This document shows, in pieces, positions 12 through 6,267 of a stretch of DNA of 64,000 nucleotides (position 1 is the first letter of the stretch; every line of letters starts with the position of its first letter). A program made the position numbers and the translations under genes. A model generated the notes under the pieces. The model was not told the origin of the DNA. It worked only from the letters and a program-made list of their open reading frames with translations, and searched no databases. This DNA is from Escherichia phage T4: the sequence record NC_000866.4; one strand, written 5' to 3'.

Positions 12-2189
12 TTAGGCCGCAAGGGCCTTCATAGTTTTAGCGATTTGGGAAACTTCATCATCACTTAAAGAGTTGCGATAACCGATGAAGTCGGAAACAA
101 TACGGAATTTCTTGGTAAACTCAGCAACCATTTTATCACTGTTTTTTGAAGCATTATTTGATAATACATCAAAAAGATTAGTTACTGTCCAAATGTCATG
201 ACCGATGGTATCTTTTCCACCATTAAAATATACACCCTGTAATGAACTAACCATATTAGCGAGTCGTGTATATTCTTCAGAAACTTCATCTATACTGAAG
301 TACTTCATCATAAAATCTAACTCAGGATACTTGATAATTTTATCAATATATCGTTTAGCTGAACTTGAATAACCTACATACTTATCATAATCTACATCAT
401 CAAAAGCATCTACATATAAATCACGCAAAGCTTCAAAAATACATTGGCACTGACCGAGTTCTTTTACCTTTTTCTGTAAAAGCGGACGAATAACATAAAA
501 TTCATTAATGCCAATAAGATTAGCCATACGAATCAAAATATTCATAGATGGATGACAAAGAGATGTAGTACCATCCATAGAGAAAATATCAGAACGATGC
601 ATATACGCTACATAACCAGTAATTTCATCTGCTTCTGATGTGAGGCGTAAATAATTCCTCTTTTCCCAGCGCCCGTCTTTAATTTCAAACTTAAACGCTG
701 TAGCAGCTTTAGGACGAGGAGCTTTACTTTTAACTACCTTTGGAATATAACTTTTTACTAAAGCTTCAATTTCTGACAAATAATGAATGTTAACTTCATC
801 ACTTTCAAACATCGCCATAATATCAGGAAGCAAATCAATCTGCGATTCTACTTCTGGATTAATAAACAGAAGACGTTCGTTATGATGAATATTCAAAGTG
901 TTATTAAATTCACTATCATCTAACGCACGTGCTAATCCACGGACAATATTAACACGATTTTTAATATTATCAATAACGATATTAATTTTTGTTGTATTAA
1001 TACCAAACAGACGATAACTTGATGCAACGGCTGAAGTTTCATGACTTTGCTTAATGCGCTTCAGTCGAGGGTCAAGATTTACTTCATACACAACTCCCGC
1101 GTTGCATAACTTACTGTCAGGTTCAAACATGCTCTGCATCTTTTTATATGACAGATTTTTAGTCGTGAATTTGACTGAATTACTAATCATATAATCTCGA
1201 GCAGAATACCCCATCTTCATCAATTCACGATATGTGTGACGAGGAGATGTAGATTCTTTAAATCGTTTTACATCTTCATTAAATGCTTTCTCACTGAGTT
1301 CTTTAACTCGTTCAATAATATTTTTACGAGTGCGATCATCCAGTGAAAGAGCCTCGCGAGATGGAGCAATATCAAGTGAACCCATTGGAAACTTAATGTA
1401 ATTCACTTCATTGCGAATGCTTAGCCAGTTACGGTCTCTAATAACACCATCGATAGGATAAACAATACCACCGTAGATAGCATATAATCCACCACGATCA
1501 GGCCAGTATCTTTCTGGATTTACACCGTAATAGTCATCAAAATCCGGAAAATAATCAATTTCGCGGTCAAGACCATTAATGATAGCCAAATCTTTGAACG
1601 GTCGCATGATATAAGAAACTTCATAAGCAAAGTTTCTAAAGTCTTTTTCTTCAACTGGAACTACGATTTCAATACCAGTTTTATCATCTGGACCCATTTC
1701 TTTTACGAATGTAGGTTTAATCTGTGGACCATCACCATCCATGTAAGCTACATAACCACGAATTTCACCTTTATGATACGAAGTAATACTAAACGTATCA
1801 GTATAACTAAACGGAGATTTAGAACCTAAACCAAATCCGCCAATAAAGTCATTAGATTCAGCTTTAGATGAACTGAAGTATGAATTATACAACCCAGGAG
1901 AATTATCATCACCTTGAATATCAAAATCACTCATACCCGGACCAAAATCTCGACAAACAAATCGTGGGTCTAAACGTCCAGGAACTTGTATGATAAATTT
2001 TTCAGGATTTCCATTAAGTGCATGAGCATCAATCATGTTAGTAATCAATTCACGGACTACTGCGCGAATCTTGTTTGTATACAAATCAGATGACAGAATT
2101 TTAAATACTTTAGGAGATGCTGTGATGCTAAATGCTTTTGATTTAGAACCATTACCAAGAATTGTTTCTTTTTCAGTGGTGATAATCAT
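12..2189 (-). CDS. rIIA: rIIA protein, 725 aa, GHKL-type ATPase-like N-terminal region
   Basis: 725-aa [11 protein letters not shown]..., ATG at 2187-2189; length and sequence match T4-type rIIA; motif [10 protein letters not shown]. Confidence 0.93.
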
Positions 2190-2199
2190 AATTTCCTCA

Positions 2200-2403
2200 T
2201 TAATTCATATTACGCTTAATAACTTCAGCAACTTCTAGTAGTTCATCTTTAGTTGCGGTGTCGGATTGAATTTTATCTCTAATATCTTTAAAGCGGGTTT
2301 TAAATTCTTCGGCTTCTCCCATATCGAAAAAGCGTTGAATGATTCTATATTCTCGATGAACTGCTTTATCAAAAAGTTCTAAATTTACTTTATATGATTT
2401 CAT
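2200..2403 (-). CDS. hypothetical small protein (rIIA.1 position)
   Basis: 67-aa ORF packed between rIIA and gene 60. Confidence 0.6.
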
Positions 2404-2457
2404 TTCAATATCCTCATTTGCCCAATTAATTATACCACATCCTTGTGGTAAAGTAAA

Positions 2458-2990
2458 CTACTGGCTCATCCATTCTTTACGAAGGTCAGCATTATCTCCC
2501 ATGAGCATTTCAAAAAGCTCTTTCCAGTTCTCAGGAAGTTTAACAACATCATATACTGGGTTTTGAATCATCTCACGATATTCAGATTTTTCCAAAGAGC
2601 CAAGTCCCTTAATATAACGGATGCTATGTTTAGGTAGAGCATCTTTGGCACTCTCATATTCAGCGACTGTATAAAACCATTCTTGTTTTTTACCGACCTG
2701 AGCGATGATTACAGGAGTTTTGACAAAGCGAATTCGTCCTTGCTCAAACAATTCTGGCCAATTACTAAAAAATCCGAGCAGAGAAGGATAAATAGAACCT
2801 AATCCAATAATCTCTTAATTATGAGGTATTTCTATAGATAGCCCGAAGGCTATCCATCGTGATCTGCGTCTGTCATAATAGCGACATTCGCATAGTTCAT
2901 TGAAGAGGATTTAATAGAACGACGAACATTGTTCTGCAATTTATATTTTTTCATATCAACGCTAGAAGAATCAATTTTTACAAATTTCAT
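2458..2990 (-). CDS. 60: DNA topoisomerase II subunit gp60, translated across a 50-nt coding gap
   Basis: Two ORF-track pieces (2850..3041 holding MKFVKIDSS...MTDADHDG then stop; 2458..2751 holding the C-terminal part) separated by the classic bypass sequence; ATG at 2988-2990. Confidence 0.9.
2803..2855 (-). other. translational bypass (hop) element: take-off GGA, UAG stop, UUCG-loop hairpin, landing GGA
   Basis: Minus-strand sequence GGA UAG CCUUCGGGCUAUCUAUAGAAAUACCUCAUAAUUAAGAGAUUAUU GGA read directly; take-off GGA at 2853-2855, stop at 2850-2852, landing GGA at 2803-2805. Confidence 0.88.
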
Positions 2991-3351
2991 TATACACCTC
3001 ATAGAACTTTTCATCAGGAATCCAACCGCGTTTAAATTCATTAAATGCTCGGCCGAATAATTTTGAATTCACAGTTATATTATTAACTGATTTCCATTTA
3101 GCAACTCCCGTTCGTTTATAATGATCGGGGTCATATTTCGTGACGTACCATTCATATAAATTTGGTATTAATTTTACAGCCTCTGGATTTGTCGCTGATT
3201 TATTATACCATGGTTTCGCTTTTTCAAGTTCAGCTGCTTTTGCAGTAGCAGCAACAGTATTTCCAACACCAACTAATTTTTCAGTTTTAATGCGTGGATC
3301 ATTAACATGAAGACGAAAAACTTCGCCCTTTTCATTTTTAAAGCATGTCAT
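2971..3351 (-). pseudogene. mobA: mobA-like truncated homing-endonuclease remnant
   Basis: 126-aa ORF between genes 60 and 39; upstream 3352-3777 has no intact ORF on either strand. Confidence 0.45.
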
Positions 3352-3777
3352 GCCTTTAATTCCAGGAAGCTTAACACCTTTATTAACACCGCATCATTCC
3401 TTTGGGTTAAATGATCCTTTAATTAATAAGGCGCATTTACCCGATTTAACTACTTCTCATTCAACAACTTTATCTTTCATAACGTTTTTTGACCATTCAG
3501 ATACTGCTCTTTGATGGCTAAATTCTAGCAATTTCACTATAATTTGCACTAGAACGTAAACTATTTTTCAGTGTTTCAACATTCTATTCATCGCATATGC
3601 CATTTCACGATTACGATGAATTTTATATAGTAGAAAATAGTGCTAAAAAGTGTTCACGAAAAGTCATGTTTCACCAAATTTTCGTTATCATCAGAACCTC
3701 CCATTGATCTTGGAAGGATATGATGAATTTCACCCTTAAATTTAGAAACGCGGGTTTTACCCCGCACTATTAAGTCA

Positions 3778-5328
3778 TTATAGATTTTTTCGTAATTCAC
3801 CTACTGTTATCCATTTACCATTAATCTGTACTTCATCATTTTCATTTACGATAATTGTATCGCCATTTAGCTCGAAAGTAAACCACTCGCCATCTTCTTT
3901 TTCTTCAAACGCTTTTTCACCGAGAACTAGACCAGTGATTGCGCAAATATCAAATAGTTCTTTGTTTTTAAGCATATCTGCATAAGACATACCCCAACTG
4001 TTGAGAACTTTACCACGCAATGGATAACCACCGTGAAGTTCTTTATCACGAACATCAATAAGATATCCGATAGCCGAATCACCCTCAGTCAAGAAAAGAG
4101 TAGTATCAGCATCTTTACCGCAAAGATTCGCTTTGATATGTTTATGAACCTTAGCTTTAGAAGCCTTTTTAGCTGCTTTAGTTTCTGCTGCTTTTTCTGC
4201 CGCCAATTTACGAGCCAAAGCAGCTTCAATAATCGGCATTAGAATTGCTTCATTATTTAGAATATCACGTGAAATCTTTTTAGCATCAAGTTGAATATGA
4301 CTACGAATTTCGCCAAATGGAGAAGTCAAACGCTCTTTAGTTTGACGAATCAATCGCATGTTTTTCATATCACGAACAAACATAACGATAGTCAAACATT
4401 CTTTGACACGTGCTTTAGTCACATCAATTTTGAACTTACGTTTGATTTGTGGAATAAGGTCTTCACAAATATCATCCATAGCGCAGTCAATGTGATGGCC
4501 ACCATTCTTAGTATGAATGTTATTGACGTATGTTAATTGACGAAAACCATCCGGTGAACGACCAACCGCAATAGAACAATTTTCTTGCTCTTGAACAATA
4601 GCATGTTCATCATACTGCCGTGCATATTTCTTAAAATTGCCCTGAACCTTTTTACCATTAAAGGTAAATTGAATATCAGGATAAACTACAGCAAGTGTCT
4701 GGAGACGATCCAGTGTAATGTCAAGATAAACTTGGGACAGCTCATTAGTTTCAAATGACATAAAATCAGGAATGAAAGTAACACGAGTTCCTTTCCATTT
4801 TCCAGGAATATCTTCCCATGATTTATTTTCCATGCCATTTGAACAACGAACTACAATATTATTTTGACCGTCGCCAGTTTCACCGACAAACATCACAGAA
4901 AAAATGTTTGTCAAACTAGAACCAACACCGTTCATACCGCCGGTGACGCGTTCTTTATCATCACCAAAGTTACCACCTGCTTTTGGAATAGTCCATGCGG
5001 CAACAGGACCAGGAATTTCTTCACCGGTAGGTGTTTTAACCATCGCTTGTGGAATACCGCGACCGTTATCTTCAACTGTTACTTGATTGTTTTTAATAGT
5101 AACATTAATTTTATTCGCGAATTTAAACTTAGTACGAATACCTTCATCTACTGAGTTATCGATAATTTCATCAATAAGCTTAACAAGACCAGGTACATAC
5201 TGAACACTTTCCCATTTACCAAACATAAAGCGCTCATGCGTTTCATTAGCAGAAGAGCCAATGTACATGCCACTACGCTTTTTGATATGTTCAATATCGC
5301 TCAGAATTTTAATTTCATTCTTAATCAT
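3778..5328 (-). CDS. 39: DNA topoisomerase II large subunit gp39 (GyrB-like ATPase)
   Basis: ORF MIKNEIKILSDIEHIKKRSGMYIGSS..., GHKL ATPase motifs; ORF-track start is GTG at 5329-5331, ATG at 5326-5328 gives 516 aa. Confidence 0.94.
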   Translation of the reverse strand: MIKNEIKILSDIEHIKKRSGMYIGSSANETHERFMFGKWESVQYVPGLVKLIDEIIDNSVDEGIRTKFKFANKINVTIKNNQVTVEDNGRGIPQAMVKTPTGEEIPGPVAAWTIPKAGGNFGDDKERVTGGMNGVGSSLTNIFSVMFVGETGDGQNNIVVRCSNGMENKSWEDIPGKWKGTRVTFIPDFMSFETNELSQVYLDITLDRLQTLAVVYPDIQFTFNGKKVQGNFKKYARQYDEHAIVQEQENCSIAVGRSPDGFRQLTYVNNIHTKNGGHHIDCAMDDICEDLIPQIKRKFKIDVTKARVKECLTIVMFVRDMKNMRLIRQTKERLTSPFGEIRSHIQLDAKKISRDILNNEAILMPIIEAALARKLAAEKAAETKAAKKASKAKVHKHIKANLCGKDADTTLFLTEGDSAIGYLIDVRDKELHGGYPLRGKVLNSWGMSYADMLKNKELFDICAITGLVLGEKAFEEKEDGEWFTFELNGDTIIVNENDEVQINGKWITVGELRKNL

Positions 5329-5397
5329 CACTTATCCTCGTTTGGTTTCGGGAATATTATACTCCGGTAATCATAAAGCTAAAGGCCCGAAGGCCTT

Positions 5398-5595
5398 TTA
5401 TTTAAAACGAATAGTTGAATCCTTAAAGAACAGCCCAGAACATACTGTTCCTTCTACTTTCTGCCCGGTAGGTCCAATAGCACGAAATCCAGTATGCTGG
5501 AAATCATTTTCAGAGCAACCGAACCAATTATATCCAGTGATTTCAATATTAGTAAAACCACTTGAAGACAAAACTTTGGTTGCATTAATCAGCAT
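5398..5595 (-). CDS. hypothetical protein (39.1 position)
   Basis: 65-aa ORF followed by a UUCG-loop hairpin. Confidence 0.5.
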   Translation of the reverse strand: MLINATKVLSSSGFTNIEITGYNWFGCSENDFQHTGFRAIGPTGQKVEGTVCSGLFFKDSTIRFK

Positions 5596-5701
5596 CAGTA
5601 CTATTAATTAAAGACACTGCTAATACTAATGCTGCAATTGAACGACTAATATATTTCATAACTACCCTTTAAGCAAGTCGTAAAATCCATTATTCCCATG
5701 C

Positions 5702-5839
5702 TTAGGAAGCGGAAACTAACCGAACAGCCAGCCGATGACAATCAGGACATACACCAGTATCTCTTCCAGAAATTTTCTTGATTTTTTCGTATTCTTTTGC
5801 ACAGTCTTTGGATTGACATTTATAATCATAAAGCGGCAT
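5702..5839 (-). CDS. possible 45-aa zinc-ribbon protein (CxxC...CxxC)
   Basis: Translation gives MPLYDYKCQSKDCAKEYEKIKKISGRDTGVCPDCHRLAVR... only if one extra T is read in a T-run near 5820; the goF ORF-track coordinates imply my reading is 1 nt short in this interval. Confidence 0.35.
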   Translation of the reverse strand: MPLYDYKCQSKDCAKEYEKIKKISGRDTGVCPDCHRLAVRLVSAS

Positions 5840-5841
5840 AA

Positions 5842-6267
5842 TTATTCCTTAAAGTAAGCTTTCAACATCTGATATAAAGACCACGCCTGATCATTATTTT
5901 CAATAGTAACTTTCATGACTGGGAATTCTGTGAAATCTTCTATTTGTTCTTGCTCTTTCTCTTCCTGCTCTTGCTCTTCAACCGCCTGATATGGATTTTC
6001 CACTTCATCAAAGAACCCAGCTTCGTTAGTAGAGAGCCAGATAAAGTTTTCGTCAAGGATATCACCGCCGGCACAACGTTTGAGTACACCTATGGATGTC
6101 ATAATTTTAGTAGGACGCCCAAGATAATCAGCATCTAAAATTTTAAAAGGCTCCATACCTAAACGTCGTGCATAGATTCCGTTATCAGTATGGTCTTTAA
6201 TAAAATTTTCTTGAGCTTGTTTATTTTTAAATTGATACCATTTATTAACTTCAAATTTAATAGCCAT
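5842..6267 (-). CDS. goF: 141-aa protein, probably goF
   Basis: 141-aa [15 protein letters not shown]... at the goF position and length. Confidence 0.6.

Follow-up and report, generated by a model that had tools for sequence, protein, structure and literature searches.

The disrupted mobA gene between genes 60 and 39 in a phage T4 genome record is very probably an artefact of an old gene 39 record

The window analysed here, a 64,000-nt stretch of Escherichia phage T4 (NC_000866.4), is the start of the phage genome, and its ORF map gives, all on the minus strand, rIIA (12..2189), rIIA.1 (2200..2403), gene 60, mobA and gene 39 (3778..5328, also annotated in T4T). Gene 60 is read in two blocks. 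Codons 1-46 (2853..2990, minus strand; ORF map and T4T) form a cassette-encoded N-terminal extension whose last codon is the take-off codon GGA. The 50-nt bypass ('hop') gap follows at 2803..2852 (minus strand), marked as a misc_feature in T4T and also seen in the fold, with a UAG stop and a UUCG-capped take-off hairpin. Past the GGA landing codon lies the remainder of the gene (2458..2802, minus strand), which is homologous to the C-terminus of the unsplit topoisomerase subunit (T4T annotation and comparison with unsplit relatives). The bypass element is identical in other T4 records.

Between the two topoisomerase genes the ORF map shows a 126-aa ORF (2971..3351, minus strand), the historical 'gp60.1', which corresponds to MobA residues 147-272. 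The adjoining 426 nt (3352..3777) contain only short frames, of 30 aa at 3457..3549 on the minus strand and of 54, 36 and 35 aa on the plus strand. A preliminary description of this DNA had placed the 126-aa ORF and about 430 nt with no intact reading frame in the interval 2971-3777 between genes 60 and 39. The ORF is indeed present and the 426 nt hold no long frame, but two details need amending. Gene 60 already begins within the interval, its first codons sharing 2971..2990 (20 nt) with the 3' end of mobA, and a 48-aa ORF at 3654..3800 (minus strand) with an HNH motif had been missed. This ORF has its GTG start 23 nt within gene 39 and the sequence VNYEKIYNDLIVRGKTRVSKFKGEIHHILPRSMGGSDDNENLVKHDFS; the GUG start of mobA and its 23-bp overlap with gene 39 have already been described (PMC2988022). 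It carries the motif EIHHILPRSMGGSDDNENLV, scores 21.5 bits against Pfam HNH (cutoff 21.4) and matches PHROG 655 with E=9e-21. The ORF map, tblastn, Pfam and PHROG together identify it as the MobA N-terminus with the first part of the HNH motif.

The locus is mobA, the free-standing HNH homing-endonuclease gene of T4, which extends over 2971..3800 (minus strand) and has its frame broken in this record (T4T annotation, tblastn and PHROG 655). In T4T (HM137666) the same interval is one gene, mobA (2971..3789, 819 nt, 272 aa), annotated "homing endonuclease; H-N-H family". Intact MobA matches PHROG 655 'homing endonuclease' over residues 1-265 (E=2.2e-57), so that the preliminary assignment of the locus to the homing-endonuclease gene mobA was correct. 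TBLASTN of the interval had been proposed as a check, and with intact MobA as query it places residues 1-47 at 3800..3660 and residues 47-272 at 3660..2974 in another frame. All of 2974..3800 is MobA-like, but over shifted frames, garbled patches and in-frame stops, and the disruption is therefore real in this sequence.

In an alignment of 26 homologs N41 and H50 do not vary at all and H26/H27 hardly at all. The corrected ORF has the HNH motif (His ... Asn ... His) in a single frame, GEIHHILPRSMGGSDDKENLVKLTFREH, whereas in the window as literally written the motif is not intact: an inserted T at 3667 separates NLVK from LTFREH by a frameshift, so that the final His lies in a different frame and the 48-aa ORF comes to its stop. 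Full-length MobA scores 20.1 bits against Pfam HNH, just under the 21.4 cutoff. Full-length orthologs in other phages are 269-282 aa long with 48-99% identity, and more than 100 partial homologs have only the N-terminal HNH module in common with MobA. The C-terminal half (residues ~110-272) is MobA-specific and has no NUMOD1 or NUMOD4 match in Pfam; the region of the 126-aa ORF (residues 147-272) is presumed to be the DNA-binding part. Structure searches recovered no solved HNH homing endonuclease, a sequence search of the PDB matched nothing beyond the short HNH motif of a group II intron maturase (E=0.009), and NCBIfam gave only a sub-threshold IscB HNH match.

Comparison with phages whose topoisomerase gene is unsplit delimits the insert. 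In blastn against AugustSocin and RB14 (where the gene is named '60plus39') homology is confined to 2200..2793 and 3911..5599; since it is lost at 2793 and regained at 3911, the insert relative to the unsplit large-subunit gene is 2794..3910 (minus strand). This MobA mobile cassette is 1117 nt long in the window (1106 nt without 11 extra bases described below) and replaces 64 nt of the unsplit gene. Read along the coding strand, it holds the 43 C-terminal codons of gp39, then mobA, the 46 N-terminal codons of gp60, the 50-nt bypass and 9 further nt. The gp39 part, with the stop codon, lies at 3778..3910 (minus strand) and is a cassette-encoded C-terminal extension by comparison with unsplit relatives. 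AugustSocin and RB14 have a single 605-codon topoisomerase gene and in most relatives the large subunit is encoded by a single gene, which bears out the preliminary statement that gp39 and gp60 are one polypeptide in many related phages; the two breaks in homology likewise agree with its proposal that the insertion separated them.

A megablast search with 2400..4000 returned 498 Tequatrovirus records, 40 of them covering the whole query, and about 450 Tequatrovirus records match the 3' part of gene 60 and do not have mobA. The insertion site is thus polymorphic for presence and absence, with close relatives that carry an uninterrupted target gene. These sequence comparisons support a cassette that separates gene 39 from gene 60, in agreement with earlier work (PMC2988022; bioRxiv 10.1101/2022.08.31.505936). 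The published MobA element is 1097-1106 nt long, encodes a MobA of 269-279 aa, supplies C- and N-terminal extensions and has a bypass protecting against MobA (bioRxiv 10.1101/2022.08.31.505936). mobA, the split 39/60 gene and the bypass cassette are already-known textbook features of T4, and nothing in their arrangement here is biologically new.

One record differs at this site in another way. Escherichia phage CJY920 (PQ349265, an UNVERIFIED record) has, in addition to an intact mobA, an extra insertion of ~886 bp adjoining the 3' end of gene 60. The insertion encodes a second, different HNH endonuclease of 270 aa (276..1088, minus strand), which reads MNYRKIYDKLIAAAKNR...HHILPKSMGGS.

The breaks in the mobA frame can be assigned base by base. 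The window was aligned with five T4 stocks (T4T, MT984581, OZ209023, KJ477684 and OL964735) and five other phages (RB55, BF15, e11/2, HY01 and pSe_SNUABM_01). Eleven single-base insertions are found only in the window, at 3450, 3462, 3465, 3518, 3537, 3546, 3547, 3561, 3577, 3639 and 3667; the inserted bases are C at the 3450-3577 sites (GC at 3546/3547), A at 3639 and T at 3667. Relative to T4T there are also four substitutions (3267, 3394, 3483 and 3684), three missense and one nonsense. The nonsense change, at 3394 on the minus strand, turns TGG (Trp, MobA W133) into the stop TGA and is likewise peculiar to the window. All 15-16 differences within 3267-3684 are window-only, and outside this segment the window is identical to the T4 stocks at every variable site of the alignment.

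A search with 3380..3700 extended the comparison to 41 records. In 40 of these, among them 11 T4 genome records, RB55 and RB59, the 321 nt of the window correspond to 310 nt, and the 11 insertions and the stop are absent from all 40, the 11 T4 genome records included. Each of the 11 other genomes checked in full has mobA as an intact frame of 272 codons with at most two amino acid differences. Removal of the 11 extra bases and restoration of TGG at 3394 converts the window sequence into the 272-aa MobA of T4T. This is the intact endonuclease ORF, after correction of reading errors, that the preliminary description had set against its own reading of the locus as decayed or degraded, and that reading is not supported by the same comparisons.

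The single record that matches 3380..3700 at 100% is X06220.1, an old gene 39 record of 2561 nt (CDS 600..2150). It is equivalent to window 5928..3367 (minus strand) except for two differences around window 5800-5860, so the 11 insertions all fall within its final 411 nt, together with three of the four substitutions. These 411 nt are the tail of the record past the gene 39 stop, where there is no known frame to serve as a check. The 126-aa ORF (2971..3351) starts just past the end of X06220 (window 3367). The spurious bases of the X06220 tail, mostly phantom C's, together with a few miscalled bases, most likely account for the picture of a 126-aa ORF and some 430 nt of junk, in which an accurate C-terminal half of mobA would adjoin an N-terminal half riddled with errors. 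The appearance of decay would come from the 11 extra bases that this copy of mobA has taken over from the old gene 39 record.

The mobA segment is not the only part of X06220 that departs from other genomes. A second cluster, of 14 window-only differences, lies at 5587-5766 in genes 39.1/39.2, is shared only with X06220 (in its 5' leader) and includes indels at 5587, 5602/5604 and 5707; it is absent in T4T, MT984581, OZ209023 and HY01. The ORFs of this region are 65 aa and 45 aa long in the window and 86 aa (39.1) and 58 aa (39.2) in T4T. These differences are probably reading errors of the same kind. Within gene 39 itself a compensating pair at 4346/4351, an additional C and the lack of an A, puts five bases out of frame, so that the window reads MRLIRQTKERL where T4T and the unsplit relatives read MRFDSQTKERL, with the conserved MRFDSQ. 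This pair, too, is probably an error in the old gene 39 record.

Single-base indels between the window and T4T are also scattered elsewhere, at 644/660, 7304, 26639, 27181, 31901, 40247, 40825/40840, 42406, 52115, 54368, 58063 and 63507. Several of these are nearby compensating pairs (644/660 in rIIA and 40825/40840), and one or other record may be in error at these sites too.

The lesions in mobA do not have the composition of natural decay, for which a mixture of substitutions, deletions and homopolymer slips was looked for: there are 11 insertions, no deletions and only four substitutions. The insertions are also strongly clustered, with 11 indels in 218 bp against 0.07 expected (Poisson P~4e-21), the expectation being taken from the other 20 indel positions in the 64-kb comparison of the window with T4T. 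Nine of the 11 inserted bases are C on the plus strand (P~2e-5 given 21% C). Natural single-base insertions are expected in homopolymers, and none of the 11 extends one. Nor are the disruptions reproduced in independent sequencing, X06220 alone agreeing with the window. We infer that the lesions are reading errors and not mutations in the sequenced clone. Programmed frameshifting that would rescue the window frame was considered and rejected, because 11 separate shifts and the in-frame stop would all have to be bypassed.

The opposite reading, that the stock or clone behind X06220 really carried a heavily mutated mobA while other stocks remained intact, would make mobA a true pseudogene of one laboratory lineage. 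Such mutations could have accumulated because selection was relaxed, or have been favoured during cloning in E. coli by the toxicity of the nuclease; homing-endonuclease genes are often toxic when cloned, and the window and X06220 agree exactly in the mobA segment. Yet a single frameshift would suffice to inactivate the gene, and 11 insertions plus a nonsense change in 290 bp, with no deletions, a strong bias to C and no homopolymer involvement, are unlike natural or cloning-selected mutation. X06220 also carries the 5587-5766 cluster and the compensating frameshift in gene 39, where toxicity explains nothing, and the changes are all absent from the 11 other T4 genome records. A pseudogene of this origin is therefore unlikely.

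Published statements do describe the gene in these terms. [quoted passage not shown] Both statements appear to rest on this same sequence. A literature search for work linking mobA to errors in the reference sequence found nothing relevant.

Decay of mobA in T4 as a species, with an endonuclease past invasion that is eroding and has only the 126-aa ORF left, is what the window says if read literally. It is also what the historical annotation as 'defective' and the naming of ORF 60.1 imply, and the endonuclease has been lost in some other clades (bioRxiv 10.1101/2022.08.31.505936). The sequence is, however, undisrupted in the 40 other records, 11 of them T4 genomes, and the ORF is intact and nearly identical in each of the genomes checked in full; neither relaxed constraint nor loss of the ORF was found in close relatives. 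Natural variation in mobA is moreover lower than in the flanking topoisomerase sequence: among 10 other genomes there are three variable sites in 3026-3722 (~700 nt) against ~25 in 3801-4100 (gene 39). Species-wide decay is thus extremely improbable. Judged from these counts, the low variation of mobA relative to its flank would fit recent horizontal spread and not erosion. The cassette is more uniform than its flanks, as expected of a recently spreading element.

The 126-aa ORF might instead be an independent functional gene, for example for a DNA-binding-only protein translated from the internal ATG at 3351. This start coincides with MobA Met147, the predicted fold is confident for the ORF alone (pLDDT 89) and one T4 record still annotates it separately. 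In every other genome, though, the ORF is in frame and continuous with upstream MobA, the region has homologs only within full-length MobA orthologs, as their C-terminal part, and neither a promoter-like site nor evidence of separate expression was found. We regard an independent gp60.1 as highly improbable. It is also very unlikely that the T4 lineage or clone of the old record truly had a hyper-mutated mobA, with 11 non-slippage insertions in 220 bp, or that the surviving 126-aa ORF is expressed alone as a DNA-binding protein. A hyper-mutated mobA, if true, would point to an unusual localized mutational process or to strong counter-selection against the nuclease.

Taken together, the data argue strongly that real T4 has an intact mobA and that the apparent decay and the separate '60.1' ORF are artefacts of the old gene 39 record; we consider this very probable. 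This sequence should be used with caution: in mobA, in 39.1/39.2 and over a short part of gene 39 it has differences that every other T4 genome lacks. On the reading as record errors, these differences yield a false pseudogene and a false small ORF, '60.1', and the false pseudogene has entered the literature. For studies of homing-endonuclease decay or of the evolution of the bypass cassette, a resequenced T4 genome would be preferable.

[quoted passage not shown] The mobA of real T4 then has 272 codons; it opens with GTG in a 23-nt overlap with gene 39 and closes in a 20-nt overlap with gene 60. MobA is reported to be made from the gene 39 message because the cassette lacks a promoter of its own (PMC2988022). 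A scan of 2400-5500 for sigma-70 promoters and terminators found fewer sites than in shuffled sequence and none that stood out for mobA, which is consistent with co-transcription with gene 39 and is uninformative alone. MobA is described as nicking its target and as being inherited at high frequency (PMC2988022), and the bypass blocks cleavage by MobA (bioRxiv 10.1101/2022.08.31.505936). By the mechanism given in the literature, when a relative such as T2 infects the same cell, MobA would nick the relative's insert-free topoisomerase allele, recombinational repair would then copy the cassette into the nicked allele, and the bypass insert, ~20 nt from the nick site, would protect genomes that already bear the cassette.

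The closest known counterparts are the MobA proteins of T4T (ADJ39722), RB55, HY01 and others, which are encoded at the same locus between genes 39 and 60 with the same overlaps with both. From these the window differs solely in the text of the record, namely by the 11 extra bases, TGG->TGA and three missense changes; after removal of the extra bases, four codons differ from T4T MobA, one of them being the TGA stop. MobA also has its N-terminal HNH module of ~100 residues in common with MobE, mobB, mobC, mobD and NUMOD-bearing phage HNH endonucleases such as I-HmuI. The module shared with the Mob proteins follows the pattern MNYxKIY...HHILPRSMGG...NLV...REH, and many homologs align over 27-40% of the query with 40-60% identity. 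Endonucleases of these groups nick one strand (PMC2988022). Many of the partial homologs carry NUMOD domains, whereas the C-terminal half of MobA is without NUMOD1 or NUMOD4. MobA also differs in location: it splits its host gene, while MobE and the other T4 mob endonucleases sit between genes. In this respect it resembles mobE of Aeromonas phage Aeh1, which splits nrdA and is likewise a free-standing HNH endonuclease inside an essential gene that works as two polypeptides (PMC2988022). The Aeh1 mobE/nrdA arrangement involves another host gene and, unlike the MobA cassette, has no translational bypass element.
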